A DNA stretch of 64,000 nt from Candidatus Nomurabacteria bacterium (GCA_016699365.1 CP064973.1:639916-703915), one strand, 5' to 3'. Numbered from the stretch's first letter, positions 47,142 to 62,790 are shown. The notes: generated by a model from the sequence alone, not told the origin. Numbers and translations are program-made.

Positions 47142-47147
47142 GTTCAC

Positions 47148-47172
47148 AAAGGCGGGAAAATTCCCGCCTTTT
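47148..47172 (+). terminator. intrinsic terminator (AAAGGCGGGAA-AA-TTCCCGCCTTTT)
   Basis: After the pncB stop. Confidence 0.6.
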
Positions 47173-47196
47173 ATTATTAATGTATAATCAATCTAT

Positions 47197-48039
47197 ATGA
47201 CACACAAATTCGATAGAGTAGCTATTTTCTACAGACCCGACATCTCTGGCGGCAGCACATGGGAGAAGAAAATCATATCAAAACTAAAATCTTTAAATAA
47301 AAAAATTGAAATCGGGTCTAAGCGTCCGAAGGTGGTTATTGCTCTAGGTGGAGATGGAACAATCATGGAAGCCATCCGCAATTTTAAACACTTCTCCCCT
47401 CTTTTTATAGGACTGAACTTGGGCCACGTCGGATTCCTCGCGACTATTCGCGAGAAGAAAAATTTTCTAAAAGGCATCGAAAAAATATACAAAGGTGAAT
47501 ATACAGTTTCAGAGCGAATGATGCTCCACGTCGGAGTCGTACGTAAAGGCAAAGAGATCTACGAGACCCAAGCTCTCGGCGATATGTATATTCAAAACCT
47601 CACAGGACTTCTCGATCTCGATATCCATATCGATGAGCATCTAGTTCAGCGTGTTCATGGAACAGGTGCTATAGCAAGCACCGCGAGTGGTTCTACGGCC
47701 TACAACTTGTCACTACATGGTCCGATAGTTATGCCAGATATAAACTGTATCGTAGTGAACGAAATCCTCGATCACAACACTCCGACACCTTCTATGATTA
47801 TCAAGAAAACTAAACGTGTTTCTTTCCATATTAAAAATTTCCGCCGACGCAACGAAGTACTGCTCGCAAAAGATGGCCTAGATATTGACGTAGGTATGTG
47901 GACCGATGGAGTGCTCGTCATGCGCCTGCTTCCAGGCGACATAGTCCATGTAGCGCGCGCTCGCGGGAAAATAAAACTCGCCGAGATAGAAAAAGATTAT
48001 TTCTTCAAAAGTATCCAACAAAAATTCACATTCAAATAG
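47197..48039 (+). CDS. nadK: NAD kinase
   Basis: VIALGGDGTIMEA (GGDG), NE/D motif region, 280 aa. Confidence 0.85.
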   Translation: MTHKFDRVAIFYRPDISGGSTWEKKIISKLKSLNKKIEIGSKRPKVVIALGGDGTIMEAIRNFKHFSPLFIGLNLGHVGFLATIREKKNFLKGIEKIYKGEYTVSERMMLHVGVVRKGKEIYETQALGDMYIQNLTGLLDLDIHIDEHLVQRVHGTGAIASTASGSTAYNLSLHGPIVMPDINCIVVNEILDHNTPTPSMIIKKTKRVSFHIKNFRRRNEVLLAKDGLDIDVGMWTDGVLVMRLLPGDIVHVARARGKIKLAEIEKDYFFKSIQQKFTFK

Positions 48040-48042
48040 TAG

Positions 48043-48070
48043 AAAAGGCGGACAATTGTCCGCCTTTTTG
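48043..48070. terminator. bidirectional terminator (AAAAGGCGGACA-AT-TGTCCGCCTTTTT)
   Basis: Between convergent genes. Confidence 0.6.
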
Positions 48071-49033
48071 TTATTTAATTTTTTCAACATTCTCACCAGC
48101 TTTTTCTTTACTGGTAATATATGTGAAATGAAATTCTTTTGCCACTTCCGGCATTACTACCATACCTTCACATTCTGCCAATGCTTGTTTGCAATGCCTG
48201 AAAAATATTGGCATATAATTTTTTGGAAGATTAAGCATAGCAATCATTGATCGTACGTTTTTCAACACATTCATCTCGTAACGCTCCTGGCGCAATCCGA
48301 TTACACTAAAAGAAATATAGTCTTCCAGTATCCGCTCATACTCGAGCACAGGTAAAGTTAAGCGCTCTTCGGAATACGATCTGTTTATTGTTGGTAGATT
48401 TTCATACCAGAGCTTGCACCAAGCCGCATTGTTTTTACGAAACTTGCGCAAATAACCTAAAACCTTATCTGCGTCTGGATGCTGATTCATAAGACCAATA
48501 ACGTTATCTTCCGGCGCACTTAAGATAATCCTCTGTCGAAAGTCGAGCATTTCATTCGCAGTAGGCTTTTTATGACGACCAGCAAACCTAAGGAGATCGT
48601 ACATGATTGTGTAATCGAGAGATTTTTCACGCATCTCCGGAATCCGGTAATAAGTGAATATCTCGGTCTCGTTTGACGCAACCCATTCGTTTACATTCAT
48701 GATTTCAGCAAATGACTCAAAGGTCATATTGGCCCGCGGTGAAAGCGGATTGCGGAAAAGCATGTGAGTAAAGTCGTGAGCAAAATACATATCACGCACG
48801 AAATCATTTTTATAGTAATCTCCTCTGTCCAGCACAAAATTGAAGTACTGGGTGAAATGAGAAAATTCTTCAGGGGTCGATTGTTCGAAGAATATCGGCG
48901 CCCGGTTATCGATCACAAATTGAATCAAACCTTTATAGAAAGGATTTGATTTAAATTCGCGTGTACGAAATACATGCGAGAAAATATAGTTTTCATACTC
49001 CTCGACCGTATCAAAGATTTTAAAGTTTTTCAT
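48071..49033 (-). CDS. hypothetical protein (320 aa)
   Basis: Intact ORF, no recognisable motif. Confidence 0.45.
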   Translation of the reverse strand: MKNFKIFDTVEEYENYIFSHVFRTREFKSNPFYKGLIQFVIDNRAPIFFEQSTPEEFSHFTQYFNFVLDRGDYYKNDFVRDMYFAHDFTHMLFRNPLSPRANMTFESFAEIMNVNEWVASNETEIFTYYRIPEMREKSLDYTIMYDLLRFAGRHKKPTANEMLDFRQRIILSAPEDNVIGLMNQHPDADKVLGYLRKFRKNNAAWCKLWYENLPTINRSYSEERLTLPVLEYERILEDYISFSVIGLRQERYEMNVLKNVRSMIAMLNLPKNYMPIFFRHCKQALAECEGMVVMPEVAKEFHFTYITSKEKAGENVEKIK

Positions 49034-49151
49034 AGTGTACGTTTGGTTGAATTATACCACATATATTAGTATTCTGCAAGTATATTCCCTTTGAACTAAA
49101 AGTATTGTATTATCATTCCGGCACAAAAACATTTCATTTAAAAAAACAAAT

Positions 49152-50507
49152 ATGGAAAAAGGTTACGTAGACGTACTTTTAGGTCTCCAATGGGGAGACG
49201 AAGGCAAAGGAAAAATCGTAGATTATCTTTCGCCACAATATGACATCATTGCCAGATTCCAAGGCGGCCCAAATGCTGGACATACCTTGTATGTAAAAAA
49301 CAAAGAAGGGAAACAGGAACGAATAGTTCTGCACGTTGTCCCATCTGGACTTACAAGAGAAGACGAGCTCATGGGGGTTCTCGGAAATGGTATGGTGATA
49401 TGCCCTATCGCATTCAAGGATGAGATAAAAAACATCTTTGATATAACAGGTATTGATGTATGTGAAAAACTCATCATCTCTACAAACGCACATATGATTG
49501 TTCCGACTCACAGGCTTTTAGACAAAGCGAGTGAGATTGCAAAAGGTAAAGGCGCAATCGGGACAACCGGTAAGGGTATCGGGCCATGCTATATGGACAA
49601 AGCTGGCAGAAACGGCATTCGATTTGAATCATTGATTGACTTGAGTAAATTCAACGAAGAATACTTAAGACTTGAAAACAAACATCGTGAAATACTCAAA
49701 CAACAATATGGGTACACCGATGAGCAAATCAATGCTGAGATCAAAGAGCAATGCTACAGCTTCAAAAGATCAATTCTTTTTATCAGAAGAAAAATGATTC
49801 GACAGATAAAGAGGACTGAGTATTGGCTGAACGAACAAATTCGTGAAGGCAAAAAAGTTCTCGCAGAAGGCGCACAAGGGACCATGCTCGACATCGACCA
49901 CGGAACATATCCGTTTGTAACTTCATCTAGCACTATTGCTGGTGGAGCTTGCACAGGACTTGGAATATCACCACTTTTGATTCGCAAAGTGATCGGTGTA
50001 ACCAAGGCCTATTGTACACGTGTAGGCAACGGAGAATTTCCGACAGAAATTACAGACCAAATCGGTGAACAGATCCGCAAAGACGGAAATGAGTTTGGTT
50101 CAACTACTGGTCGCCCGCGTCGCTGTGGCTGGATGGACTTCCCTGCTCTTGAATATTCGTTTTTGATAAACGGCGTGACAGATCTGATCATCACTAAAAT
50201 TGATGTATTCAAAAACCTCTCTGGTTTTAAGGTATGTAGCGAATACATGGTGCAAGATAAAGTAAGTAGAGAATATCCAGTGGATTGCGACAAGGCCCTA
50301 CCTCTGTATGAACAATTTGAATTCGACGAACACGAAAGAATGAATCTCGGAAACATCACCGACGAAGAAGAGTTTGGAAAAGGTATGAAGCAATTTATTT
50401 TCTTCATGAGATTGAAACTCGAGAACACAGGTGTTCAACTGGCTGGAGTATCAAACGGACCAGAGTGCGAAAAGTATATTGATATAAAGAGTCTGCAAAC
50501 TGTATAA
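49152..50507 (+). CDS. purA: adenylosuccinate synthetase
   Basis: GLQWGDEGKGKIVD P-loop, GGPNAGHT. Confidence 0.9.
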   Translation: MEKGYVDVLLGLQWGDEGKGKIVDYLSPQYDIIARFQGGPNAGHTLYVKNKEGKQERIVLHVVPSGLTREDELMGVLGNGMVICPIAFKDEIKNIFDITGIDVCEKLIISTNAHMIVPTHRLLDKASEIAKGKGAIGTTGKGIGPCYMDKAGRNGIRFESLIDLSKFNEEYLRLENKHREILKQQYGYTDEQINAEIKEQCYSFKRSILFIRRKMIRQIKRTEYWLNEQIREGKKVLAEGAQGTMLDIDHGTYPFVTSSSTIAGGACTGLGISPLLIRKVIGVTKAYCTRVGNGEFPTEITDQIGEQIRKDGNEFGSTTGRPRRCGWMDFPALEYSFLINGVTDLIITKIDVFKNLSGFKVCSEYMVQDKVSREYPVDCDKALPLYEQFEFDEHERMNLGNITDEEEFGKGMKQFIFFMRLKLENTGVQLAGVSNGPECEKYIDIKSLQTV

Positions 50508-50510
50508 AAC

Positions 50511-50535
50511 AAAAACCCGAGTTAATCTCGGGTTT
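50511..50535 (+). terminator. intrinsic terminator (AAAACCCGAG-TTAAT-CTCGGGTTTT)
   Basis: After purA. Confidence 0.6.
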
Positions 50536-50653
50536 TAATATTTTTAGAGAAAAGTTTCTCCAATTTGTCTCCAACTTTCAAATCGGTGAGGTATGTCAGT
50601 TATTGACTTATTTGAAATAATGTTATACAATACTAATATAAAAAGTACAAATA

Positions 50654-50998
50654 ATGAAGACAGAAAAAACCAGATACCGCACTATTTCCGATGGACATGT
50701 AGAATTTCTACAATATTATCGCACCTACAAAGTATTCTTTGGGCTCATCAAATTAAGCGCATGGACCAATGTTTGGTACCCTTACTTTGACAAGCTATGG
50801 GGACGAACACTCGACTCCTCTGGATATAACGGATATGCTTGCACTTACAATACAAACCTTGAAAAATTCAAGGATGATTGGCCAAACATAGAAGACTACT
50901 TCAAATGGGCAGAAGAACAGCAGAAAATACTTGAAGCAGAGGCAAAAGAGTATAAGGAAGAGATAGAGAAAAAGAAAGGTGAAGTAAAGATGTTGTAA
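50654..50998 (+). CDS. hypothetical protein (114 aa)
   Basis: ORF track, followed by a terminator at ~51020-51052. Confidence 0.4.
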   Translation: MKTEKTRYRTISDGHVEFLQYYRTYKVFFGLIKLSAWTNVWYPYFDKLWGRTLDSSGYNGYACTYNTNLEKFKDDWPNIEDYFKWAEEQQKILEAEAKEYKEEIEKKKGEVKML

Positions 50999-51155
50999 AA
51001 ATACAATAACTAAACTTCTTAAAGCATCATTTTTAAAGTGATGCTTTTTTATTTGATTTGCGTCACGAATACTAAGTCTACTAGTATTACTTCGAAACAC
51101 TGGACGGATTAAGTACTTGCTTGTGATCCACAATAATTTGTTCGCCATCGCTCTA

Positions 51156-51220
51156 TGTGGTCACGAATCACTAAGTATTTTATTTCGATTACTCATAAAA
51201 TACAAAGTGTTCGCGACCCC
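51156..51220. repeat. 65-bp direct repeat copy 1 (internally an imperfect hairpin GTCACGAA...GTATTTTAT-N11-ATAAAATAC...TTCGCGAC)
   Basis: Identical to 51304-51368. A degenerate third copy lies at ~51062-51105. Confidence 0.7.
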
Positions 51221-51303
51221 ACCTCGCCTGTCGCAGGGCGACATGACTGCGGCTTCACCGCGTAGCAAAAAATCCCAAGCAGTTGGGATTTTTCTGTTGT
51301 GCT

Positions 51304-51368
51304 TGTGGTCACGAATCACTAAGTATTTTATTTCGATTACTCATAAAATACAAAGTGTTCGCGACCCC
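51304..51368. repeat. 65-bp direct repeat copy 2
   Basis: Perfect identity with copy 1, 148-bp period. Confidence 0.7.
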
Positions 51369-51410
51369 GGCTCGTGGTTTTGTGTGCTCACAAAACATCA
51401 CTGCGCCCGT

Positions 51411-51458
51411 CACACATAACAAAAAGACTGGAGCAGTCCAGTCTTTTTGTTATGTGTG
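51411..51458. terminator. exceptionally long hairpin (22-bp perfect stem CACACATAACAAAAAGACTGGA/TCCAGTCTTTTTGTTATGTGTG, loop GCAG)
   Basis: Read directly. T-rich on both flanks. Confidence 0.5.
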
Positions 51459-51502
51459 AGCCTAATCGAGATGCGACCCAAAGATTCATTGCCCTGTAAG
51501 GA

Positions 51503-51697
51503 TTATTTTAACCTTTCCTTGGCGTCAGATCGACCCTTCTCGAGAGTAGCTTTCTTTGTATACAAATGAGGGTTTTGCTTCCTATCTTGATCTAGTAACC
51601 ATCGAAATACTGCGACCACTCTATCACTTTCTTCTTTAGTCCAATTTTTAGGATTTCTTTTATCTTCTTGGTTCATAAAAAGTGACAAAAGTGACAC
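51503..51697 (-). CDS. hypothetical protein (64 aa)
   Basis: ORF track. Last gene of the minus-strand operon. Confidence 0.3.
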   Translation of the reverse strand: MSLLSLFMNQEDKRNPKNWTKEESDRVVAVFRWLLDQDRKQNPHLYTKKATLEKGRSDAKERLK

Positions 51698-51740
51698 AGG
51701 TTCGACTATAAAAGTTACAGATTACTGTAACTTTTATAGT

Positions 51741-52283
51741 CTACAAACCCCAAGAATCATGAGCTTCTTTTGTGTAATGATTTAAAGTTGTTTTTGGGTG
51801 ATTATTCATATCAAATTGAGAGATTGCATCTGCTATCGGTTCCTTTTTAAAAGGGATATGAATAATTCCAACCTGCCTGTTGCTTATTGCTTTAGATAAT
51901 TCAGCAGGCCATAGATGCGAAAGAGCTGATGGATCCATAATTCTGTTGTATCCAGTGTAAGTAACTATAATTGGGATTTTGCAAGTTTCGACAGCGTACT
52001 TAATTTCAAAAGGAACCCAGTCAGTATCCAGTTTTGTAGTTTGACCAATAATCAAAAGTAAATGTTTTGAATTATTCATTCTTGCTATCAATGCTCGACG
52101 TAGAGTTTCCTTTCTACTTGAATCTCTAACAGCTCCTGTCTTTTCATGACTATTAGCAAAGCTAAAGTCATCATCTCTTACTCTCCAACCTTTCAGTAAA
52201 CTGTAGTACTTCATATCTGAAGCGGTTGGGTTTGTTTCTCCGTCTGCATGAAAAGCTATGTATGTTCCACTTCTGTATGCCAT
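51741..52283 (-). CDS. TIR-like domain protein (ThsB-like, DUF1863-type), paralogue 1
   Basis: YIAFHADGE..., ...SKHLLLIIGQTTKLDTDWVPFEIKYAVETCKIPIIV matches the ThsB pattern (memory of B. cereus ThsB). Confidence 0.65.
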   Translation of the reverse strand: MAYRSGTYIAFHADGETNPTASDMKYYSLLKGWRVRDDDFSFANSHEKTGAVRDSSRKETLRRALIARMNNSKHLLLIIGQTTKLDTDWVPFEIKYAVETCKIPIIVTYTGYNRIMDPSALSHLWPAELSKAISNRQVGIIHIPFKKEPIADAISQFDMNNHPKTTLNHYTKEAHDSWGL

Positions 52284-52286
52284 AAA

Positions 52287-53129
52287 TTAATTATGTAAAG
52301 ACTTTAAAAAATCTTGAATTTCTAATAAATTAACCTTTTCTTTATCTTCTTCTCGTATTATCAAAACCAGTTCCTTTGAAATTGTCTCAACTCTTGAGTT
52401 AATGATAAATGACAAAAGAATTAGATTGATTGGTAGCTTAAATGAAATACCAGGAACTCTTGCTAGGTTTGTACCCATAACAGGCATAACGATAGTTTTT
52501 TGCTCTCCTTCAATTCTGATCTTAGTCCAAAGGTTTTGAAGCGATACCCATAGGCTATTTATATCCGAGGTGGCTTTTAGATCAGATCCCATTCGGCTAT
52601 AAGCACAGCAAAAAAACTTCCTATTCGGTGTTGAGAGTGCTACTACTGTGCCAATTTTATATCTCTTATTTTTACCTCGAGTTTTCTCTGTGTCTTCTTC
52701 TGATTCTTCATTTTGTAATAATGTATCAAGATCAGTATCAAGTTTGTTTTGATTATTTTCATACATTGAAACTAAAAACTGACCTTGCATACTATCCTTA
52801 CTTACAACATCACCTATCTCTGTATCAAAAGTATCACTGAACCCAATCACAAGATGTCCAGATTGGTCGAATATATTACCAACCTTTATACCGATTTTTA
52901 CATCAGGATTTGAAAATGATTCAGAAAAACTAGTTTGTGGCCATGCTCTAAAGAGAGCAATAATCGCAGATATAATGATCACTGAAACCCACCCTTTCCA
53001 TCCATAACTAGGAAGATTTGTATAACTAAAAGTAACTACCTGAATGATCCCACTAATCACACCAACTGACACAAGAAAGTTCGTACCAAATTTACGAAAC
53101 ATTCTTCTTGAAAGAATAGAATTTATCAT
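52287..53129 (-). CDS. 2TM + Macro-domain protein (ThsA-like effector of type II Thoeris)
   Basis: Two N-terminal TM helices. The C-terminal motif order fits a Macro fold (IGIKVGNIF...HLVIGFSDTF...GDVV; KIGTVVALSTPN...KFFCCAY; TIVMPVMGTNLARVP). Confidence 0.55.
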   Translation of the reverse strand: MINSILSRRMFRKFGTNFLVSVGVISGIIQVVTFSYTNLPSYGWKGWVSVIIISAIIALFRAWPQTSFSESFSNPDVKIGIKVGNIFDQSGHLVIGFSDTFDTEIGDVVSKDSMQGQFLVSMYENNQNKLDTDLDTLLQNEESEEDTEKTRGKNKRYKIGTVVALSTPNRKFFCCAYSRMGSDLKATSDINSLWVSLQNLWTKIRIEGEQKTIVMPVMGTNLARVPGISFKLPINLILLSFIINSRVETISKELVLIIREEDKEKVNLLEIQDFLKSLHN

Positions 53130-53638
53130 AAGCCGAGTTGTTGATACACAGAATCAGTATATGTATATCGATGATCTTGATAATCTATATGATTCTTCCA
53201 TTTATGATAATTATCTGGAAAATGATCTAAGGCATACTGAATCGCCTTTAATTTAAAAGGTACTGAAATAGTATATTTCCAGTCTTTAATGGCAGAAGGA
53301 CAAAGGTTATCATCGTAACCTTTTTTATTATTTAAATTAACAATTACTATCGGTATGTCTTTTTTTCTTGCCAACTCAATTTCCCATGGTAAAAATTTTC
53401 TCAGATACTTAGTATTATCTCCGACCAATAAAAGCATTTGTTTAGAGTTTGCCATTCGTACTCTAAGTTGAGCTTTTATTGATTCTTCGGTGCTTGTATC
53501 CCTCGCACTATTTAGGTCATGAGCATTTAAAAAATCAAATTCAATATGATCATGTTCTTTCCATGCAGTCATTAAGCGATAATATTTCATATTGTTATCT
53601 CCATCGAAAGCAACATAAGTTTTATTCTTGTAGGACAT
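53126..53638 (-). CDS. TIR-like domain protein (ThsB-like), paralogue 2
   Basis: YVAFDGDNN..., ...SKQMLLLVGDNTKYLRKFLPWEIELARKKDIPIVIV. Confidence 0.65.
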   Translation of the reverse strand: MSYKNKTYVAFDGDNNMKYYRLMTAWKEHDHIEFDFLNAHDLNSARDTSTEESIKAQLRVRMANSKQMLLLVGDNTKYLRKFLPWEIELARKKDIPIVIVNLNNKKGYDDNLCPSAIKDWKYTISVPFKLKAIQYALDHFPDNYHKWKNHIDYQDHRYTYTDSVYQQLGL

Positions 53639-53643
53639 ATTGT

Positions 53644-53874
53644 TTATCCACGAGGTGGAAATGGGTCATTTCCATAGCTGTTACGCTCTTGGATCTTTCC
53701 GTCTTTACCATGAATAAAATGTTCAACCTTTGATTTTTCGGCAACTTTTTCAGCTCTATCAAGAGCATTATTTTTTGTATGATGTGAAGAGACAGGAGTT
53801 GATGATCCCTCTTTTTTATTTTCCCACATACTACGATCCGAATTGTATACCGTGTGTATATTTTTGTTAGCCAT
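53644..53874 (-). CDS. DUF2188-like small protein
   Basis: 76 aa, pattern HTVYNSDRSMWENKKEGS...EHFIHGKDGKIQERNSYGNDPFPP (memory). Confidence 0.45.
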   Translation of the reverse strand: MANKNIHTVYNSDRSMWENKKEGSSTPVSSHHTKNNALDRAEKVAEKSKVEHFIHGKDGKIQERNSYGNDPFPPRG

Positions 53875-53885
53875 ATATTTATAAA

Positions 53886-54572
53886 TTAACTTTTAATAAT
53901 TCCGACAACCTTTCCACTTAACTGGAAATCATCACCCTCATGAATAAATATCGGGAGATATTTATCAGTTGAATCCGCTTCAAGAACGATACGATTGTTT
54001 GCTTTGTCATTTTTGTATCTCTTGATAGTTGCCATTCCGTCTATAACAGCGACAACGATATCTCCGTTCTTGTAGTTTTTATACCCACTATCTACCAAAA
54101 CGAAATCTCCGCTCTCTATAGTATTCTTGTCATCTACTTTTGCGAGATTCATACTGTTACCGTCTGCGATAACAGAGTAGAGATCTTTCTTGTTGTATGG
54201 CAACATAGAAGATGAAACCTTGAGATACTGCTGAATATTTTGTTCGGCAAATATAGTTGCAGGACCACAGTTTGCAGATCCAACAACAGGGAGTGAGAAC
54301 ACTATATTGACGGTTGATTTCACAAGACCTCGCTTTACAGGCTTTATAACCCCTTGTTCAAGGTTCATCTGAATCATTCCAGCCTTTTCAAGCTGTAATA
54401 AGTGATATTTCACTATCTGCGGTTTGTCAGGCACGCCAATTTTATCGGCTATTGTTCTAAGGCTGTATGATCCAATGTTGTTCGGATCACTATCTATGAG
54501 AGCTAAAAGCTGTTTCTGTTTGTTGTGCATACACTCATTATAGCATACTTTTAAACCTGCAACAATATCCAT
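53886..54572 (-). CDS. LexA/CI-like repressor (N-terminal wHTH + S24 peptidase)
   Basis: Ser nucleophile in GNSM and Lys in KRYK of the S24 autopeptidase domain. The wHTH is LRTIADKIGV. Confidence 0.75.
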   Translation of the reverse strand: MDIVAGLKVCYNECMHNKQKQLLALIDSDPNNIGSYSLRTIADKIGVPDKPQIVKYHLLQLEKAGMIQMNLEQGVIKPVKRGLVKSTVNIVFSLPVVGSANCGPATIFAEQNIQQYLKVSSSMLPYNKKDLYSVIADGNSMNLAKVDDKNTIESGDFVLVDSGYKNYKNGDIVVAVIDGMATIKRYKNDKANNRIVLEADSTDKYLPIFIHEGDDFQLSGKVVGIIKS

Positions 54573-54605
54573 TTGACAGTTTTAACACCCTTTTGGTATA
54601 CTTTC
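54573..54605 (+). promoter_or_regulatory. sigma70-like promoter (TTGACA-18-TATACT) giving a leaderless transcript at ATG 54609; divergent from the repressor gene
   Basis: Read directly. Confidence 0.4.
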
Positions 54606-54608
54606 CCT

Positions 54609-55028
54609 ATGGAGCAAAGTTTGCAATTAAATCGAGTAGCACAGCTTCCAAAGAAAGGTGAAAAAGTCATCGTTCTTCAGCTTACCGACATTCAATTGCA
54701 CTCTAATGCAAGACCTACCCAATCGGTTGGTGGTGCAATACGACGCTCCATAGAAAATAATAAGCCTGGTCGTATCTTTTCTTCTCTTGAGAAGAAGCAA
54801 GAATCGAGTGTTGATCAAAATTCAATAGAGTTCACAATGCCGTTTGCAATGAACGATCCTGTTCTAAGACAAACAATCCATGATTACCAACAACAAGGTT
54901 ATCGTGTGTTGATTCAAATGCCGAAGTCAGGATTACCAATTCATCTTGGCAAGGATGCTGTCGAATTTATGAACAGTACTCGAGGAAAGCGAATCTTGAG
55001 GAAGATAAAGAAAGACAAAGGAAATTAA
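54609..55028 (+). CDS. hypothetical protein (139 aa; first gene of the rightward operon)
   Basis: ORF track, start reset to MEQSLQL. Confidence 0.4.
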   Translation: MEQSLQLNRVAQLPKKGEKVIVLQLTDIQLHSNARPTQSVGGAIRRSIENNKPGRIFSSLEKKQESSVDQNSIEFTMPFAMNDPVLRQTIHDYQQQGYRVLIQMPKSGLPIHLGKDAVEFMNSTRGKRILRKIKKDKGN

Positions 55029-55187
55029 ATAAATACGCGTCGTAAAAGCGAATAGTGCAACGCCACAAGCCATGCCTATTCCGCGCAAGAAGTAGTTTGA
55101 GGTTTTTCGGACCTCTACTTATTTCGTGTGTGGAATAGGCTTTTTCTATATCCATACATTTTATTAAAGATTAATTAATAAAATGCT

Positions 55188-56462
55188 ATGAAAAAACTTT
55201 CATGGACTACAGGAGTTCGAGAGGTCAAAGACCTACTCCCTTGGCAAGAAAACCCAAGAAAAATCTCAAAGGTTGCGTTAGATAAATTAAAGAAGAAGAT
55301 CGTACAAAACGGCTTCCACAGTGTGATAGTGATTGATACTGACAATACGATTCTGTCAGGCAACCAAAGAAAGACCGCTCTCACAGAACTTGATATCAGC
55401 ACCGTAGATGTGATGATCCCTAGTCGTAAGCTAAGTGATGCGGAACGAAGAAGGATCGGTATTGAAAGCAATATCAATGACGGCGAATGGGATTTTGAGA
55501 AATTGAAGTCATTTGATTTGGAACTGCTCCAATTTGCAGGATTCGATGAAAAAGAATTAGTGAAGTTTTGGGACGAAGAAAAAGACACTAAAGACGACAA
55601 GTTCGATGTAGACAAGGAGCTTAAGAAAATTAAAACACCTCAAACAAAGTTGGGTGATCTTATTGTCATGGGCAATCATAAGTTGCTTTGCTCAAGCTCG
55701 ACCGATATCACTGCGGTTAAAAAACTGTTCGGAGATGATAGAGCTACTGCTATCTACAGTGATCCACCTTTTAATATCGGGCTTTCCTATGACAAAGGTG
55801 TCGGCAATAAATCCAACTACGGAGGGACATTTGATGATAATCAGTCGCCTGAAGCGTACAAGGAATTTATACGCCAAGTTCTTACGTCATCACTCGCCAT
55901 ATCAACCAAAGATACTCATGTCGCATTTTGGTGTGATGAAGCGTGGGTGTGGGTTTTTCAAACCCTGTATATGGAACTAGGCGTAAAGAACCGAAGACTG
56001 AACATTTGGATCAAGAACAACTCTTCGCCTATACCAACCGTCGCATTTAACAAGTGTGCGGAGTATTGCGTGTATGGGACAAAAGGGTCGCCTTACTTGT
56101 CTGATCTAATCAAAAATCTTAATGAGATTCAAAACAAGGATTGTACTACTGGCAATCAACTTCTTGAAGATATCTCTAATATCTGGGCAACCAAGCGACT
56201 ACCATCGAACCAAATGGAACACCCTACAAGCAAAAATCCTGAACTACACCACAAGTTCATCATGCGATGCACGAAGCCAGGAGACATAATCTTTGACGCT
56301 TTTTCTGGTTCTGCCAGCACCATGATTTGTGCGGAACAATTGGATCGCAAGGTGTACTCTCTTGAAATTGAACCCGTGTTCTGCGACTTGGCAATTCGCA
56401 GATACGAAAAACTGACTGGTCGCAAAGCAAAAGTAATCAAGAACTTCTATGAAAAAGAATAA
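55188..56462 (+). CDS. ParB-like nuclease domain fused to DPPF-type (N6-adenine/N4-cytosine) DNA methyltransferase
   Basis: ParB-N region (VIVIDTDNTILSGNQR). MTase motif IV IYSDPPFN and motif I FDAFSGSAST. Confidence 0.7.
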   Translation: MKKLSWTTGVREVKDLLPWQENPRKISKVALDKLKKKIVQNGFHSVIVIDTDNTILSGNQRKTALTELDISTVDVMIPSRKLSDAERRRIGIESNINDGEWDFEKLKSFDLELLQFAGFDEKELVKFWDEEKDTKDDKFDVDKELKKIKTPQTKLGDLIVMGNHKLLCSSSTDITAVKKLFGDDRATAIYSDPPFNIGLSYDKGVGNKSNYGGTFDDNQSPEAYKEFIRQVLTSSLAISTKDTHVAFWCDEAWVWVFQTLYMELGVKNRRLNIWIKNNSSPIPTVAFNKCAEYCVYGTKGSPYLSDLIKNLNEIQNKDCTTGNQLLEDISNIWATKRLPSNQMEHPTSKNPELHHKFIMRCTKPGDIIFDAFSGSASTMICAEQLDRKVYSLEIEPVFCDLAIRRYEKLTGRKAKVIKNFYEKE

Positions 56463-56787
56463 ATTTCAAGATCAGTTCCTTGATGAACTGCGAAAAGTAC
56501 CGATTGTTCAAGTGGCTTGTGAGAAGACAGGATTATCTCGCAATAGTATTTATCGTTGGAGAAAAGATGATAAAGAATTTCTCAAGAAAATGGATGATGC
56601 CCTTGCCGAGGGTGTCGCATTGGTAAACGACATGAGTGAAAGCCAACTACTCACACTCATTAAGGAGAAGAATTATCCTGCAATTAGCTTCTGGCTTAAA
56701 CACCGCAATGATAACTATAAAAATAAGCTAGAGATCACTACTAAAGAAGATTCCGAACAGCTTACACCGTCACAGCAAAAATCGTGA
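56449..56787 (+). CDS. HTH-domain protein, possible terminase small subunit
   Basis: N-terminal HTH CEKTGLSRNSIYRWRK. Position immediately upstream of TerL. Confidence 0.4.
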   Translation: MKKNKFQDQFLDELRKVPIVQVACEKTGLSRNSIYRWRKDDKEFLKKMDDALAEGVALVNDMSESQLLTLIKEKNYPAISFWLKHRNDNYKNKLEITTKEDSEQLTPSQQKS

Positions 56788-56802
56788 AGCAGGCACTTAA
56801 AC

Positions 56803-58353
56803 TTGCCAACATCACAAAGTCGAAATCAATTAAAAACATTAATTCTAAAAAGCACCATGACTAAAATAATTCCAAATGCATTGGTGAATACCATGCTCAA
56901 AGATCGTTCTGTTCGTACCTCTATTACCAAAGACAGTTTTCTGTATTTCTTCCACTTCTACTACGCCCACTATGTGAAATACGAAACTGCTGACTTTCAA
57001 AAAGAGATTATTCATAATCTTGAAAAAAGCTCGACAGAGAATATGTACGTTGTCGCATTCCGTGGATCAGGAAAATCTACTCTGGTAACAACTGCATATC
57101 CTATCTGGGCAATACTTGGAAAACAGCAAAAGAAGTTCTGTATTATCTTTTGCCAAACTCGTGCACAAGCAAAACAGCACATGATGAATATCCGTACTGA
57201 GCTTGAGGGTAACGATGTTCTTAAAAAGGATCTTGGACCATTCCAAGAAGAAAGTGATGAGTGGGGTTCGTTCTCATTAGTATTCAAAAAGCACGGAGCA
57301 AGAATCACCGTAGCTTCTGCCGAGCAAAGTATCCGTGGTATTCGCCACAACGAACACCGTCCAGACTTAATAATCTGTGATGACGTTGAGGACGTGCAAT
57401 CTACCAAAAACCGTGAGGGACGAGACAAAACATATCACTGGCTTCGAGGTGAAGTTATCCCTGCTGGCGATAGAAACACTCGACTAATTATTGTTGGAAA
57501 CTTACTCCACGAAGATTCACTCTTGATGCGTATTAAAGACGAAATTGCCAAAGGTAAAGCAAAAGGAATATTCAAAGAGTACCCACTGATAGATAATCAC
57601 GGCGTGTGCTTATGGTCAGGTAAATACAAAAGCGAGAAAGACCTTGAGGATGAAAAGTTGAAGGTTTCTAGCGATATATCATGGCAACGAGAATACCTGT
57701 TACGCATTATTCCAGACGATGATCAAGTTATTTATCCTGAATGGATCAACTACTATGACGAATTGCCTGGCGAAAAGCACCGAGGATATCGAGGTACTTA
57801 TGCAGGTGTCGATCTTGCGATTTCAGCTTCAGAAACTGCCGATGATACTGCTGTTGTATTTGCTCATATATATTCACGCCGTGAGAAAATGCGAATATAC
57901 ATATTGCCTAACCCTATCGCAAAGAAACTTAACTTTCCTGCACAAGTAGATCTCATGAAAGATATTCGTAGCACCATGCTCATAAAAAGTACCGATGAAC
58001 TGTTTGTGGAAAGCGTAGCGTATCAGGAAGCACTACCGCAAATGCTTGAACACCAAGGTGTTAAGGCGACAGCAATCAAACCTAAAGGAGACAAACGAAC
58101 TCGACTTGCCCTAACTTCGACTGCAATAAAATCATCAAAGATATTATTCCCAAGACAAGGATGCGAGAGACTTATTGAGCAACTTGTAGGGTTTGGAGTA
58201 GAAAAGCATGATGACCTTGCCGATGCATTTTCGTTGCTGATAAACTCAACTATGGATAAGCATGCCAAAGATTCAACATGGCTTATGTACTGGATGGGAG
58301 ATGAAGAACCTTTGTACTATAGAGATTATGTTGATATGGACATAAAAAAGTAG
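56803..58353 (+). CDS. phage terminase large subunit
   Basis: Walker A FRGSGKST, Walker B LIICDD. C-terminal RNaseH-like nuclease (GVDLAISASETADDTAVVFA). Confidence 0.7.
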   Translation: MPTSQSRNQLKTLILKSTMTKIIPNALVNTMLKDRSVRTSITKDSFLYFFHFYYAHYVKYETADFQKEIIHNLEKSSTENMYVVAFRGSGKSTLVTTAYPIWAILGKQQKKFCIIFCQTRAQAKQHMMNIRTELEGNDVLKKDLGPFQEESDEWGSFSLVFKKHGARITVASAEQSIRGIRHNEHRPDLIICDDVEDVQSTKNREGRDKTYHWLRGEVIPAGDRNTRLIIVGNLLHEDSLLMRIKDEIAKGKAKGIFKEYPLIDNHGVCLWSGKYKSEKDLEDEKLKVSSDISWQREYLLRIIPDDDQVIYPEWINYYDELPGEKHRGYRGTYAGVDLAISASETADDTAVVFAHIYSRREKMRIYILPNPIAKKLNFPAQVDLMKDIRSTMLIKSTDELFVESVAYQEALPQMLEHQGVKATAIKPKGDKRTRLALTSTAIKSSKILFPRQGCERLIEQLVGFGVEKHDDLADAFSLLINSTMDKHAKDSTWLMYWMGDEEPLYYRDYVDMDIKK

Positions 58354-58425
58354 TCGCGAGTATGCGACGTATCTCTAGTTCTGCATAGACTATGCACCAC
58401 CAACTGGTCTGTCATTAATTAATAT

Positions 58426-59706
58426 ATGACAGAAGTCGAACAAAGCCAGATGAAATATTGCTTGTACGCTCGTAAATCAACCGAAGCAGAAGAAAAGCAA
58501 GCCCTTTCTATTGATTCCCAAATCAAGGAAATGAAGCAGATTGCCGAGCGAGAAAATCTAACCATAGTTGAGATCCGTAAGGAATCTCACTCTGCAAAAG
58601 AATCTGGACAAAGACCAGTATTTGAGGAGATCGTAAAAGATATTGATACGGGGATATTCAACGGAATCATTACATGGGCACCTGATAGATTATCTCGTAA
58701 TGCAGGTGATCTTGGAAAACTTGTAGATAGAATGGATCAAAGGAAACTGATTCAGATCAAAACTTTTGGTCAGACTTTTTCCAATTCACCAAGTGATAAG
58801 TTCTTGTTGATGATCCTTTGTAGTCAGGCAAAACTCGAAAATGATAACAAGAGTATTAATGTAAAGCGTGGTATGAGAGCTAGATGTGAAATGGGTTTAT
58901 GGCCAGTACAACCACCAACAGGATACAGAAAGCCTAATCAACGACTAGCTAAGTGTGAGGTAGAAATCGATCCAGAACGATCTGATACCATACGACAAAT
59001 ATTCGAGAAGATTAGTTATGAAAAATGGAGCGTATCGAAAGTACACGCATGGCTACGATACGATCTTGATTTCAAAACCCATAGAGGTTTTCATCTAAGT
59101 TTAGGAAATGTATTCAAAATTATAAATAATACTTTCTACTATGGTCGCTTTGAGTTCCCACAAGGATCAGGTGTTTGGTATGAGGGAAAGCATAAACCCA
59201 TTATCACTAAAGAGTTGTTTGATGAGACCAGAAATTCTATCAAGTCGCAGACGATAAAATCACAAGGTAAGGAGTTCGCCTTTACGCGAATTATGAAATG
59301 TGGAGCTTGCGGATCAGGTATTACTGCCGATGAAAAATTCAAGAAGTTATTGAATGGTGGAGTTAACCGACATGTATATTATCGATGCACAAAAGCCAAA
59401 GACAGGAATTGTAAAAATCCTGCATTAAACGAAACTGAGCTTATCGAATCACTACTCGATATGGTTGATACCTTGAACATAAACAAGGTAAAACTCACCG
59501 CAAAGCTTGATATTGAAATTCAAAAGTTTAAGAAATTGCAGGCAATGTTCTTAGGAAAGAAAAAGACAGAAAAAATAGAACCGATTGATCTCAAGGACTA
59601 CACAAAATTTGTACTAAAAGAGGGATCTCCACTAGAGCAGAGATCCATCTTGGAATGTATCAGTAGTGAGTTGGTTTTGAAGAATAAAATAATAAAAATT
59701 ACTTAA
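58426..59706 (+). CDS. large serine recombinase (integrase)
   Basis: N-terminal catalytic YARKSTEAEEKQ...SIDSQ, recombinase domain, zinc-ribbon CGACGSG...YYRCTKAKDRNC, C-terminal coiled coil. Confidence 0.8.
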   Translation: MTEVEQSQMKYCLYARKSTEAEEKQALSIDSQIKEMKQIAERENLTIVEIRKESHSAKESGQRPVFEEIVKDIDTGIFNGIITWAPDRLSRNAGDLGKLVDRMDQRKLIQIKTFGQTFSNSPSDKFLLMILCSQAKLENDNKSINVKRGMRARCEMGLWPVQPPTGYRKPNQRLAKCEVEIDPERSDTIRQIFEKISYEKWSVSKVHAWLRYDLDFKTHRGFHLSLGNVFKIINNTFYYGRFEFPQGSGVWYEGKHKPIITKELFDETRNSIKSQTIKSQGKEFAFTRIMKCGACGSGITADEKFKKLLNGGVNRHVYYRCTKAKDRNCKNPALNETELIESLLDMVDTLNINKVKLTAKLDIEIQKFKKLQAMFLGKKKTEKIEPIDLKDYTKFVLKEGSPLEQRSILECISSELVLKNKIIKIT

Positions 59707-60847
59707 TCTTAATTATTGATTCAGTTGTTTTATCGTAAGTGTAGTTAACAATCTCTCCCTTTATTATTAGTTCAATCACATTTCCGATCACCATAATTGG
59801 TGCAATAAACCACTCTTTCGGAGTGTAGTTTTTTCCATTGTTGTCAGTGATTTCAATATCTAGACAGGAATCACTAAAGAAGCGATGTATCAATCGTTCA
59901 AATCTTTGAGGATTCATATTGAAACATCTATAGGTCGCAACAATAGACACTGGAGCCATGAGATAAGTTGGATCTTGCTGTGCGTTTTTTATACGATCTT
60001 CAACACTCGTAGTCGAGAACCCAATCTTGAAAAGATTTTTTGTACTAGAAATTCTAGGATTATCACTTAATGACTTAAGTACATAGATATAGCCAGTTTC
60101 TGAATCTCCGTCTTCAACGCTTGCAATATCTTGATTATCTTTTACGGCATAGCCCGCGTCAGACAATCTCTTTCCTAATGATCGCAAAAGCACACTTGAT
60201 TCAGTACCGTTTTCGTAAATACAACGAGTTCGTCGGTTTATCTTTTGACTGTTTCCTCGATATGGATCATAGATCTTTTCTAGATATATTAAGACACCAC
60301 TAAGAACAAAGAAGTCTCCTTGCTTCATCTCGCTTTCAACGAAAGTGGCAAGTTTTTTAGTACCATTTTTTAAATCTCTCTGAGTCTGTGCAAATAAATG
60401 CTCATACTGGTCAAAATCAGCACAAATCTCTCTTTGAGCCACGAAGTCAGGATCAGAACGATCTTGTCGTATCTCTGGAACATTCTTTATGTTAAAAACA
60501 GAACTATCTTCAATAGAAAGTAAGTCCAGATCATCATCTTCAAAAATATCACTTACTGTATCAATATCTTTTTTCTCAATCTTTAAAAGACCATGAGTAT
60601 CATACTTACTTAGGAAGTCTCGTTGCTCTTTATTTTCTCTGATGTGCTTAAGGCGTGATGCGAGTTTGTGTTCATGAATATCTCCGCCACTTTTAGGTTC
60701 AGCATTATGTACTGCAAAGAACTCATTTATTTCCATAAATGATTCTGTTAAACGATCATCAGGCGTAGCAGAAACAGCTTTCTTGTCTATGTCGAGAAGA
60801 CCTAAGTCATCATCATTTATTAAATCTAGTAAATCGTTTTTATCCAT
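59699..60847 (-). CDS. T5orf172/GIY-YIG-like nuclease domain protein with acidic repeat N-terminus
   Basis: C-terminal GYIYVLKSLSDN...KIGFSTTSVEDRIKN. N-terminal repeated DDDLxLL(D/S)I(D/E) motifs. Confidence 0.5.
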   Translation of the reverse strand: MDKNDLLDLINDDDLGLLDIDKKAVSATPDDRLTESFMEINEFFAVHNAEPKSGGDIHEHKLASRLKHIRENKEQRDFLSKYDTHGLLKIEKKDIDTVSDIFEDDDLDLLSIEDSSVFNIKNVPEIRQDRSDPDFVAQREICADFDQYEHLFAQTQRDLKNGTKKLATFVESEMKQGDFFVLSGVLIYLEKIYDPYRGNSQKINRRTRCIYENGTESSVLLRSLGKRLSDAGYAVKDNQDIASVEDGDSETGYIYVLKSLSDNPRISSTKNLFKIGFSTTSVEDRIKNAQQDPTYLMAPVSIVATYRCFNMNPQRFERLIHRFFSDSCLDIEITDNNGKNYTPKEWFIAPIMVIGNVIELIIKGEIVNYTYDKTTESIIKIK

Positions 60848-60848
60848 A

Positions 60849-62786
60849 TTAATTTTGAATTTGTTCAGCCTTGAGCTTCTTCAAGTACAGTACCGCTTCC
60901 GCCAAACGCTTCTCAAGGGGGTCAGACGAAGATATGTCTGGCTTTCGACCTGTTTGTATTGTGAACTCCTTAGCTTTAGGCCATAGGATCTTAACTTCTT
61001 CTGGTGTCATCTCGATTCGAGATGAATCAATTGTATCTTGAATAACCTTAAGGATACTTGAAGTCACTGATTTTGAGAGAATCTCAAAAGCTTCTTGGAA
61101 CGGATTGATACTGTCGATAAGGTCAATATTTAGATCATCAATATTCACAAACTGACCTGCCATACGAACAAATTTCTTATCACCAACTTCTTTGATTTCT
61201 CCGTTCTTGATTACAGAATCAACAACAACGTGTTGACGAACTTCCTCTACTTCAAGATCTGTTAGATCAGGGTATTTCATTTGAATAATCTTTGGGATCA
61301 TTACTTTGTTGATTACCTCGGGATCAACATTTCCAGGCAACGCTTTAATCATTTGATCATCTTGAAGAATTGAAGCTTTGAGGTCGTTGATATCAGATTC
61401 AATAATCTCTCGCACACGATCAGTACTTGGTGCTTTAAAACCCTTTATTTTTATTTCACCTGGAGTAAAGGTAGTGTCATCATTTGGGAATCGTGGTTTG
61501 AAGTTATAGTGCGGAGCCATGACTTGTTCCATAAGCAAAGAACAAGTGATCGCCTTGAGCATGTTGTTTACTGACACTTTAACCTCGCCGTCTTTTGCAT
61601 CAGGCTGAGCAATAAGATTAGTAAATTGTGCATGAGTTTTGTTTGCACTGTCACGAGTACAGCGACCGATAATCTGAATGATCTCCGTGAGAGAGCTTCG
61701 GTAGCCCACAGTCAAAGCATGTTCACAGTATGGCCAGTCAAATCCTTCCTTTGCCATACCAAGAGCAATAATGATATCCATGTCATCCTCCTTTTTCATT
61801 GTGCGGAGGTAGTTTGAAATCTTATCTCGATCAACTGAATCATCGACAAGGTTTGCTACTTTAAGCATCTTTCCGTCACCGTCACGCTTTACATAGATAA
61901 CACCGGTCTCATGATCTTGATGATCTACTTCTCCAATAATGTCCAAGATTAGATCAACCTCGTTGAGCTTGTCTTTTGTAGATTCTCCAGAGTTTACGTT
62001 TGGAATGTGTAAAATCGTTTTCTTATTCGTATCCAAAACCTCAGCAATCGCTGATGTGTATTTACCTTGATAAAAGTGATATCCAATACCCAAGGTTTTT
62101 AAATAGGTATAACCGTTCAATTGCTGATAGTAGTTGTATGTCACTTTCTGGAACTTTGCCTCATCTTGTGGCAACAGAACTGCAACACCATCGCCTCGAA
62201 AATATGATCCAGTCATCGCAATGATATGAGCATTCGAGTTCGTCATTATTCCATGCAGAACTCGTCCCAAAATACTGCTTTCCTTGTCGGCAGACACATG
62301 ATGAAATTCATCGATCGCAATGAGAATGTCATTAAATTTTGCATCTTCAATTTGCTCACATGCAAAACGAAGAGTGGCATGAGTACAGATAAGAATCTTC
62401 TCATCGTTATCCATAAAATTCTTGAATGCCTCAACCTTTCCTTTGGCATTATCAAGACCTGGGGTACAAAGGTTATAGTTATCATTTGGTTTCCAGTCTG
62501 CGAAAAATCCATTATCAGTTAGATTGGTTTCGCTAAATGATCCACCAATTGATTTTTCAGGAACGGCGACAATCACTTTTTTGATACCTTGATTAGTCAG
62601 CTTATCTAGAGCAAGGAACATCAAAGCACGAGATTTTCCCGATGCTGGAGGAGCTTTCAAAAGTAGGTATTGAGCTGTTCTTTTCTCAAATGCTTTTGCC
62701 TGCATTTCACGCATACCAAAATTATTGATTTTGGTACTTTCTCCTGTTTGGGCATATGTTGCTTCTGCAACTTGAATGGTTTTCAT
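60849..62786 (-). CDS. SF2 DExH helicase (ResIII-like N-terminus + Helicase_C)
   Basis: Motif I APPASGKS, motif II IDEFHH, motif VI IIQIIGRCTR. ~200-aa uncharacterised C-terminus. Confidence 0.7.
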   Translation of the reverse strand: MKTIQVAEATYAQTGESTKINNFGMREMQAKAFEKRTAQYLLLKAPPASGKSRALMFLALDKLTNQGIKKVIVAVPEKSIGGSFSETNLTDNGFFADWKPNDNYNLCTPGLDNAKGKVEAFKNFMDNDEKILICTHATLRFACEQIEDAKFNDILIAIDEFHHVSADKESSILGRVLHGIMTNSNAHIIAMTGSYFRGDGVAVLLPQDEAKFQKVTYNYYQQLNGYTYLKTLGIGYHFYQGKYTSAIAEVLDTNKKTILHIPNVNSGESTKDKLNEVDLILDIIGEVDHQDHETGVIYVKRDGDGKMLKVANLVDDSVDRDKISNYLRTMKKEDDMDIIIALGMAKEGFDWPYCEHALTVGYRSSLTEIIQIIGRCTRDSANKTHAQFTNLIAQPDAKDGEVKVSVNNMLKAITCSLLMEQVMAPHYNFKPRFPNDDTTFTPGEIKIKGFKAPSTDRVREIIESDINDLKASILQDDQMIKALPGNVDPEVINKVMIPKIIQMKYPDLTDLEVEEVRQHVVVDSVIKNGEIKEVGDKKFVRMAGQFVNIDDLNIDLIDSINPFQEAFEILSKSVTSSILKVIQDTIDSSRIEMTPEEVKILWPKAKEFTIQTGRKPDISSSDPLEKRLAEAVLYLKKLKAEQIQN

Positions 62787-62790
62787 AAAA

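Follow-up and report, generated by a model that had tools for sequence, protein, structure and literature searches.

A satellite-like integrative element family with its own terminase genes in the Candidate Phyla Radiation

The right-hand end of a 64,000-nt stretch of DNA from a Candidatus Nomurabacteria bacterium (GCA_016699365.1, CP064973.1:639916-703915), referred to here as the window, carries an integrative element that combines genes for both terminase subunits (TerS and TerL) with a repressor, a serine recombinase and defence cargo. It is judged probable that the window holds most of one copy of an element family specific to the Candidate Phyla Radiation (CPR), whose members would be SOS-inducible satellites bringing their own terminase. 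The element is well supported as a mobile family by the comparison of related loci, while the satellite lifestyle, and with it the dependence on helper phages, is what its gene content suggests. An initial annotation of this DNA had described a satellite-like element that integrates, carries terminase genes and defence cargo and lacks structural genes, and this broad view holds.

Family plan, packaging genes and their origin

A search with TerL yields more than 4000 homologues. The best 120 are 76-93% identical to the window protein and, wherever a source is named among them, it belongs to the Patescibacteria (Paceibacterota, Colwellbacteria and Moraniibacteriota). A scan of one genome per species found a relative encoded in 202 species-representative genomes, and 80 loci were fetched with 10-kb flanks; ORF (open reading frame) calling and clustering of the fetched loci (labelled L001 upward) then gave the family plan. 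About 100 loci share a common gene order. It starts with the left end, a small end gene and a first cargo slot (both on the minus strand), a DUF2188 gene in some members, an S24 repressor and a switch. These are followed by protein U or an unrelated substitute, a ParB-methyltransferase, TerS, TerL, a second cargo slot in some members, and the integrase. A third cargo slot, present in some and headed by a 68-aa Xre-type helix-turn-helix (HTH) gene, precedes the right arm and a tRNA gene. Direct search finds 51 homologues of protein U.

The cargo changes around this core. The neighbourhoods of three TerL homologues share it and carry, respectively, a cyclic oligonucleotide-based antiphage signalling system (CBASS, with CD-NTase and Cap15), Hypoth_Ymh, and a caspase with a small partner. 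Across the family, slot 1 contains Thoeris variants, several CBASS types, a caspase with a small TIR-like partner (similar to Thoeris type IV) or Hypoth_Ymh. Slots 2 and 3 contain type I, IIG and III restriction-modification systems, diversity-generating retroelements (DGRs, marked by the reverse transcriptase PF00078 and bAvd PF22296), a secreted nuclease or copper resistance genes.

The core genes are under strong purifying selection, according to the ratios of non-synonymous to synonymous substitution (dN/dS) computed for the window genes against L059, L012, L097 and L003 (Table 1). The Walker A (FRGSGKST) and Walker B (DLIICDD) motifs of TerL and its acidic nuclease residues are conserved in 76 distinct sequences of the family.

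Searches of the window genes against Pfam and PHROGs recovered no portal, capsid or tail gene, and tblastn with portal, protease and capsid queries, run over the 64-kb window and 1.7 Mb of related loci, was equally empty; the initial claim that capsid and tail genes are lacking is, therefore, borne out. Portal, capsid, tail and lysis genes appear in no gene map of the family members. Structural genes lying just beyond the window would have pointed to an ordinary prophage, but none occurs between the ends of the relatives in which both ends are visible (for example, L003, L059 and L092), where an intact prophage would carry portal, major capsid, tail and lysis genes.

The packaging module is, nevertheless, of phage descent. 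GenBank phages reach at most 26% identity to the window TerL, whose sole match among solved structures is a phage large terminase (E = 0.002). The comparison with phage collections that had been proposed for TerL gave closer relatives in viral contigs. In a search of 1.8 billion representative proteins, the TerL relatives at 36-55% identity form a continuum, and the gene maps of viral contigs, obtained after a profile-based scan, divide it at 42-45% identity. At 45% identity or more, the methyltransferase, TerS and TerL occur with restriction-modification cargo, mostly with a serine integrase, and with no portal. At 42% or less, TerL is followed by a portal (phrog_2662), a protease and an HK97-type capsid (phrog_10), and some of these phages carry a homologue of the ParB-methyltransferase upstream. 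Single-sequence scans with distant TerLs added nothing, and one distant TerL neighbourhood (P0175) gave merely a 2.4-kb contig. The clean split at 42-45% identity indicates that, of a phage late operon, the element retained the leading genes as far as TerL and lost the rest; from the sequences compared, the loss of the genes after TerL looks like a single event followed by radiation.

The same observations bear on a decaying or split prophage, whose structural genes would have been recently deleted or would lie elsewhere in the genome, in a complete virus or a system resembling a gene transfer agent. The phage origin of the packaging module agrees with this scenario, and the frameshift in the window TerS (see below) could be read as decay. 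It is, however, very improbable, given that some 100 loci, spread over many lineages, break off at the same point (TerL, then integrase or cargo), that selection on TerL is very strong, and that the 1.7 Mb around related copies, like the window, lacks any portal or capsid homologue. The initial annotation had also offered a decayed prophage as an alternative, with which neither the family-wide conservation nor the dN/dS of TerL can be reconciled.

Several loci carry a DGR between TerL and the integrase (L017, L019, L025, L032, L043, L046, L054, L061, L071 and L092; for example, L092 9579-12500). This cargo consists of the reverse transcriptase, bAvd and a probable target protein of about 300 aa, and a type III restriction-modification pair adjoins it in several loci; a DGR within an element without tail genes is unusual. 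Several assemblies contain two copies of the element on different contigs (L045/L047, L027/L029, L038/L081 and L061/L082).

Element ends and extent

The left end is defined by relatives inserted elsewhere. In four independent elements (L059, L097, L035 and L080), homology to the window begins at 51444-51456, and in these, as in the window, the junction reads ...(G/T)GTGA/GCCTAATCGAG, where the slash marks the boundary. L059, the closest relative, matches the window only at 51456-51733 (91%) and 53549-59694 (92%), so that the cargo between and beyond these two blocks has been swapped. L097-L100, which come from other metagenomes and have another left host flank, match 51455-51737 and then, continuously, 53867-61607 (83%), a block spanning the repressor, the integrase and the T5orf172 gene and reaching into the helicase. 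Elements that are 83-92% identical are, therefore, found in different host flanks, with a shared left end at 51455-51456.

Alleles of the same site lead to the same junction. The window purA is 99% identical to a 'Candidatus Pacebacteria' protein, and the contigs carrying that purA, which are 96-97% identical to window positions 45479-50599 and 51240-51452, were used for a site comparison. In L186, the element is present and continues as in the window. L183, L184 and L185 break right after ...CAGTCTTTTTGTTA (window 51452) and continue into DUF1801 and glyoxalase genes. The presence of occupied (L186) and unoccupied (L183-L185) alleles of one site indicates a recent gain or loss at the predicted left junction, although the unoccupied allele may hold another insert. 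The proposed comparison with genomes lacking the insert, thus, located the left junction (break at 51453), whereas the right end of this copy lies outside the window. A conserved syntenic presence in all relatives, which would have argued against mobility, is not observed: host contexts vary, and near-identical genomes occur with and without the element. Scans of metagenome DNA with the left-flank sequence for empty sites gave nothing, or one chance match.

The attachment sites have the features expected for a serine integrase, as judged from sequence comparison: a short core, inverted half-sites and no long repeats. A repeat search of the window found no long direct repeats flanking the element. 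In relatives with this type of integrase, the right arm ends ...TT(G/T)GTGA and adjoins the 3' end of tRNA-Glu, and tRNA-Glu-type relatives repeat the end motif CGACCCTTCTCGAG of the left arm at about 45 bp inward from their right end. The attL and attR of L059 have only TGA in common, which fits a serine recombinase cutting at a short central core, and the attP rebuilt from its two ends is an imperfect 10-4-10 palindrome, CTCTCTTTGG-TGAG-CCTAATCGAG. The tRNA-Gln subgroup shows sharp shared ends (positions 4779 and 19677 in L003). Two elements stand in tandem in L026 (4400-4520 and 17460-17600), with an attP-like junction containing inverted CTAGCTCAAG half-sites.

Complete relatives border on the 3' end of a tRNA gene. 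A minus-strand tRNA gene (Gln, Glu, Ser, Asn, Trp, His or Lys) lies right of the integrase in 28 of the 28 genome loci with a tRNA called on that side, and two viral contigs, L092 (Glu) and L096 (Asp), show the same arrangement; in some 20 other full-length loci, the 10-kb flank contains no tRNA. Integrase clusters mostly track the tRNA type, the exceptions being two small mixed Gln/Trp clusters. The integrase of L059, where the element borders on tRNA-Glu(TTC), shares 99% identity with the window protein. Both in this locus and in L025, tRNA-Glu stands beside a divergent tRNA-Val(GAC), which identifies these tRNAs as host genes rather than cargo. Complete members are about 12-21 kb long, in most cases 13-16.5 kb; as the 10-kb flank limit cuts larger elements, these sizes were not used as evidence of headful packaging.

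The initial annotation had delimited a compact element of about 8.7 kb, from 51000 to 59706, and neither boundary stands. On the left, the start of homology in the relatives and the unoccupied alleles place the edge at 51453-51460. On the right, the limit had been set at the integrase stop codon, and a reading that retains it, with the T5orf172, helicase and MmeI genes as a separate neighbouring defence island of the host, can draw on the end of L059 homology at 59694 and on L025 and L092, in which some 100 bp, free of cargo, separate the integrase from the tRNA. This reading is, nonetheless, improbable. The integrase stop overlaps the convergent T5orf172 gene by 8 bp, which leaves no room for an attachment site, and neither a tRNA nor a second CGACCCTTCTCGAG was found in 59700-64000. 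Many relatives carry restriction-modification cargo between the integrase and the right arm with its tRNA, and the 83% continuity of L097-L100 extends from the repressor through T5orf172 and helicase despite their different left host flank. The trio also appears as cargo elsewhere: L029 has it between TerL and the integrase, L082 has it inverted behind the integrase, and L111, a distant member, carries it in the left arm. The T5orf172/helicase/MmeI module is, by these comparisons, cargo slot 3 of the element. Since an independent host has this trio in unbroken continuation of the core, the element exceeds 12.5 kb and crosses the window end. A length of about 14.6 kb is predicted for the window copy, allowing for some 490 further codons of MmeI and for the HTH gene and right arm. 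Beyond the window, the copy is predicted to continue with about 1.5 kb of MmeI, the 68-aa Xre-type HTH gene, a terminator and a right arm that includes CGACCCTTCTCGAG and has the end ...TTGTGA, followed on the host side by tRNA-Glu(TTC) or GCAGGTTTTTTTGATTTATAA.

Some members depart from this layout. L027, L033 and L036 have a longer serine recombinase (about 495-550 aa) at the left end, not after TerL; once circular, such an element would have its genes in the usual order, but with the attachment site on the opposite flank of the integrase gene. L029, L039 and L087 have recombinases at both ends.

Genes and control region of the window copy

Listing ORFs and searching the window proteins against Pfam, PADLOC and PHROG families gave the features of Table 1. 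Every gene of the initial list (S24 repressor, DUF2188, Thoeris trio, ParB-methyltransferase, TerS, TerL and serine integrase) was recovered in this way.

Table 1. Features of the window copy, with positions counted from the first nucleotide of the window
Feature	Position (strand)	Family evidence	dN/dS	Remarks
Left junction, attL crossover region TGTGTGA	51453-51459			Host side ends here, including a 23-bp terminator hairpin, 51410-51459
Element left arm (P' arm), starts GCCTAATCGAGATGCGACCC	51460-51544			Conserved in L059, L035, L080 and L097
End motif CGACCCTTCTCGAG	51531-51544			Sole copy in the window
Small end gene	51503-51676 (-)		0.1-0.4	From internal ATG, 56-57 aa; ORF to 51697; candidate recombination directionality factor
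Non-coding block, ~60 bp	51675-51741			Perfect 17-bp hairpin 51704-51741; left border of cargo slot 1
Cargo slot 1	51741-53638 (-)			Whole Thoeris module
ThsB (TIR)	51741-52283 (-)	Pfam and PADLOC		Thoeris, cargo slot 1
ThsA, transmembrane and Macro domain	52287-53129 (-)	PF20016 2.8e-54; PADLOC ThsA 4e-82
Second ThsB	53126-53638 (-)	Pfam and PADLOC		Thoeris, cargo slot 1
DUF2188 gene	53644-53874 (-)	PF09954 6e-19; PADLOC PDC-S16 5e-27		Downstream of repressor
CI/LexA-type Peptidase_S24 repressor	53886-54530 (-)	PF00717 1.8e-20; phrog_4 transcriptional repressor	0.03-0.05	214 aa from the most likely start; ORF to 54572
Divergent switch	54531-54608			Between the repressor ATG and protein U
Protein U	54609-55028 (+)		0.08-0.15	139 aa; leads the rightward operon
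ParB-like N-terminus fused to N6_N4_Mtase	55188-56462 (+)	PF01555 2e-27; phrog_498 4e-72	0.03-0.04
TerS-like HTH protein	56449-56787 (+)	phrog_4044 terminase small subunit 6e-10		112 aa
TerL	56857-58353 (+)	phrog_38 2e-76; Terminase_6C/6N	0.007-0.05	498 aa from the relatives' ATG; ORF from 56803
Large serine recombinase (integrase)	58426-59706 (+)	Resolvase (PF00239 3.6e-20), Recombinase (PF07508 1e-9), Zn_ribbon_recom (PF13408 2e-8); phrog_95 8e-62	0.014-0.02	Catalytic, recombinase and zinc ribbon domains all present, as in large-serine-recombinase elements
T5orf172/MUG113 protein	59699-60847 (-)	Pfam		Cargo slot 3
ResIII/DEAD helicase	60849-62786 (-)	Pfam		Cargo slot 3
MmeI-family type IIG enzyme	62791 to beyond 64000 (-)	Pfam		Cargo slot 3; reading frame leaves the window, C-terminal ~400 of ~900 residues inside

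The control region lies between the repressor and protein U. The initial annotation had recognised a switch of about 40 bp at 54573-54608; a divergent switch is indeed present, with the highest-ranking sigma-70-like site of the 51000-60000 region, TTGACA-18-(TG)TATACT, directed rightward at 54573-54602 (11 of 12 matches), but its size was underestimated. The repressors of the relatives measure 213-216 aa, which points to a start at the internal ATG at 54530; by this comparison the window repressor most likely begins there, and the switch would be about 78 bp rather than 36-40 bp long. An extended -10 element directed leftward, TGCTATAAT (minus strand, 54537-54545), lies 6 nt from this ATG, which suggests a leaderless repressor transcript. 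The translated repressor contains a Cys-Gly candidate cleavage site (VVGSANCGPA), a Ser in GNSM and a Lys in IKRY, and the Ser/Lys dyad would be that of self-cleaving S24 repressors. In L025, L032, L057, L070 and L091, an ImmA-like metallopeptidase (HEIGH motif) and an Xre-type HTH protein replace the S24 repressor. From its sequence and position, this pair is read as an alternative damage-responsive control module.

Cargo slot 1 of the window holds a Thoeris system with a Macro-domain ThsA, which combines transmembrane segments and the Macro domain with TIR-domain ThsB proteins (two, with PADLOC values of 4e-64 and 9e-70). The hairpin block at its left border occurs at the same position and in the same orientation in 65 loci. 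The adjacent DUF2188 gene is semi-conserved, being kept in a subset of relatives. The small end gene has no Pfam, PHROG or PADLOC match; its homologues lie at the left end of many relatives (a cluster of 17).

On the rightward arm, ParB-like PHROGs match residues 10-150 of the ParB-methyltransferase, whose DPPF motif is intact. TerS carries a 1-nt deletion near 56773, through which it measures 112 aa versus 135 aa in relatives; the last ~27 residues are lost, and what is left of the C-terminal coding sequence lies in a different frame, up to 56864. A second 1-nt frameshift affects the host nicotinate phosphoribosyltransferase (NAPRTase) gene at 46572, where a G-run has an extra G (an insertion versus L183), and splits it into 45848-46582 and 46554-47141, while L183 has a single 430-aa gene. 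The occurrence of two single-base frameshifts raises assembly or sequencing indel errors as an alternative to real pseudogenes. The 72-bp spacer between TerL and the integrase (58354-58425) is 79-90% conserved, even when several kb of cargo are inserted between the two genes (L020, L093 and L019); it accompanies the integrase gene and probably serves as its promoter or delimits cargo slot 2.

The GC content of the region is not distinct from its surroundings in the window. Rfam and tRNA scans of the window gave tRNA-Ile at 15925-15997 as their sole match; no such gene lies close to the integrase.

The host side of the left junction has variable features of its own. The 71-nt repeats at 51156-51226 and 51304-51374 were considered as element ends and rejected: they lie on the host side and have no copy at the other edge or in any related locus. 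The initial annotation, which gave them as 65 bp, had suggested looking for them at the other element edge. They belong to two tandem units (51154-51459), each with an identical 71-nt head (promoter-like, ending GTGTTCGCGACCCC), a distinct GC-rich body of about 50 nt and its own terminator hairpin. By their structure these units look like two small RNA genes, with no Rfam match. The close relatives L183-L186 have a single unit of the 71-nt type. All close relatives, including the occupied L186, have a 207-aa minus-strand ORF in place of the 114-aa ORF (50654-50998) and the first repeat unit. On this comparison, window 50600-51239 is a second, independent variable segment beside the element. 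The window purA (49152-50507) has only three close relatives (72-99%, one of them named Pacebacteria), and the next best, at about 51%, are from Bacteroidota where named. This pattern may reflect the horizontal acquisition of purine salvage genes, adjoining the NAPRTase and NAD kinase genes.

Proposed life cycle and comparison with known systems

The following cycle would account for this gene content. In the integrated state, the repressor, made from its leaderless leftward transcript, would silence the rightward operon. DNA damage, through RecA-stimulated self-cleavage at Cys-Gly, or a signal from a helper phage would remove it. The integrase, with a directionality factor (protein U and the 57-aa end gene are candidates), would then excise a circle of about 15 kb. 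TerS and TerL would recognise and cut the element DNA, as a circle or as concatemers, and load it into the procapsids of a co-resident or infecting helper. The methyltransferase would mark this DNA against restriction in the next host, which would benefit from the defence cargo.

Several findings weigh against this interpretation. Only five IMG/VR contigs contain close relatives, and these appear to be integrated copies. Protein U has no family or fold match, and the correlation of protein U (or its c7 and c54 replacements) with tRNA type, examined as a test of the directionality factor, is not strict. No core protein matches primase, helicase or replication-initiator families in Pfam or PHROGs. 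The truncation of TerS means that the window copy may be packaging-defective, and its right end falls outside the window. At the site itself, the unoccupied allele has no tRNA, although tRNA-Glu is the target predicted from the 99%-identical integrase, and the occupied and unoccupied junctions are about 3 nt off a simple two-base crossover model.

Part of this evidence would equally suit a mobile defence island that is not transduced but spreads by transformation or other means, and in which TerS and TerL are kept as a decoy or competing terminase against phages. Defence systems dominate all three cargo slots, no replication module or capsid-size-redirection gene was recognised with Pfam and PHROGs, copies in viral contig collections are few, and strong selection on TerL fits any function. 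Such an island is considered unlikely, though worth serious attention. A packaging module and integrase placed behind a CI-type repressor are arranged as in an induced transfer operon and not as in a constitutively expressed defence system, and the ParB-methyltransferase, TerS and TerL are linked as they are at the head of the late operon in related phages. Moreover, the two roles do not exclude each other, since in known satellites interference goes together with packaging of the satellite itself.

Inducible satellites thus remain the favoured interpretation, and a family of this kind would matter beyond the window. The CPR, or Patescibacteria, make up a large share of bacterial diversity, yet descriptions of their phages, defence systems and mobile elements are very few. 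A single family recognisable in hundreds of species, by a TerL at least 45% identical and by defined ends, would offer a handle on the CPR mobilome and would ease the location of CPR defence islands. Serine integrases specific to tRNA ends, with exposed attP and attB sequences, may also interest genome engineering. The literature searches brought up no account of this family; one study (PMC12455944) reports prophages and islands in genome nzgw467, the host of L025, and mentions neither the present element nor any terminase, recombinase or tRNA. The Paceibacteria prophages reported there are roughly 44 kb long, a size that about three 15-kb units of the element would match.

Among phages, the closest TerL relatives (34-42% identity) are temperate tailed phages with a phrog_2662 portal and an HK97-type capsid (viral contigs L113, L116 and L121-L123), some of which have the same order of ParB-methyltransferase, TerS and TerL. 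Unlike in the element, the genes after TerL in these phages encode portal, protease, capsid and other structural proteins. The portal-bearing viral contigs range from 26% to 57% GC. These phages are likely the ancestral or helper lineage, which makes for a concrete prediction of the helper: a phrog_2662-type portal with an HK97-type capsid. If the satellite lifestyle is true, the high conservation of TerL would point to a conserved, undescribed lineage of CPR helper phages.

Swappable cargo in near-identical elements is known from P2-like phages and P4-like satellites, in which conserved flanking genes frame the defence slots. Marine virion-encapsidated integrative mobile elements (VEIMEs) occur in particles, and serine recombinases and TerS are present in some; the large terminase of VEIMEs is presumed to be supplied by the helper (PMC9618062). 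The core genes of the CPR element are unrelated to those of either group, and up to three slots are arranged around its terminase/integrase core.

The PLEs of Vibrio cholerae (elements resembling phage-inducible chromosomal islands) are anti-phage satellites of about 18 kb that integrate through a large serine recombinase (PMC6002521, PMC9638900). The integrase type is shared, but PLEs have RepA and an origin and are bound to a single lytic helper, ICP1; no replication gene was recognised here with Pfam and PHROGs, and every available host name belongs to a Patescibacteria lineage. PLEs are not known to encode a TerL or to use tRNA genes as targets. Beyond the recombinase superfamily, no sequence relationship to PLEs was detected.

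By definition, a phage-inducible chromosomal island (PICI) has an integrase, regulation genes, a primase-replicase, TerS and no other structural or lysis genes (PMC10085698). PICIs, including the Staphylococcus aureus pathogenicity islands (SaPIs), resemble the CPR element in their size (about 10-15 kb), integrase, master repressor facing a divergent operon, TerS, accessory or defence cargo, and lack of structural and lysis genes. They differ in having a primase-replicase and, often, capsid-morphogenesis genes, in using the TerL of the helper, and in their Stl-type repressor. In the CPR element, the integrase is a large serine recombinase, and regulation takes the form of an S24 repressor of the self-cleaving (SOS) type with its divergent switch, not of an alpA, merR or stl homologue. 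The element adds a ParB-methyltransferase and its own TerL, which is atypical for PICIs; its TerS is C-terminally truncated in the window copy, and neither Pfam nor PHROGs recognises a primase-replicase or other replication gene.

Capsid-forming PICIs (cfPICIs) are the only one of four modelled satellite families with terL as a core gene (PMC10085698). Like the CPR element, they are integrative and repressor-controlled and encode both TerS and TerL. Unlike it, they have genes for capsid, protease, portal, and head-tail adaptor and connector proteins as well as for a primase-replicase, none of which was found in the window or in the complete relatives. Their known integrases are tyrosine recombinases, as opposed to the large serine recombinase of the CPR element, and their host range is wholly different. 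It is tentatively proposed, with some reserve, that the present family is the first recognised phage-satellite family of the CPR and follows a new design, in which TerS, TerL and a methyltransferase occur without capsid, replication or size-redirection genes. It would integrate at tRNA 3' ends by a serine recombinase and serve as a three-slot carrier of Thoeris, CBASS, restriction-modification systems and DGRs. If this is true, a TerL-bearing, capsid-less satellite would fill a gap between PICIs, which have TerS only, and cfPICIs, which have a full head module, and would represent a third way of hijacking phage particles.

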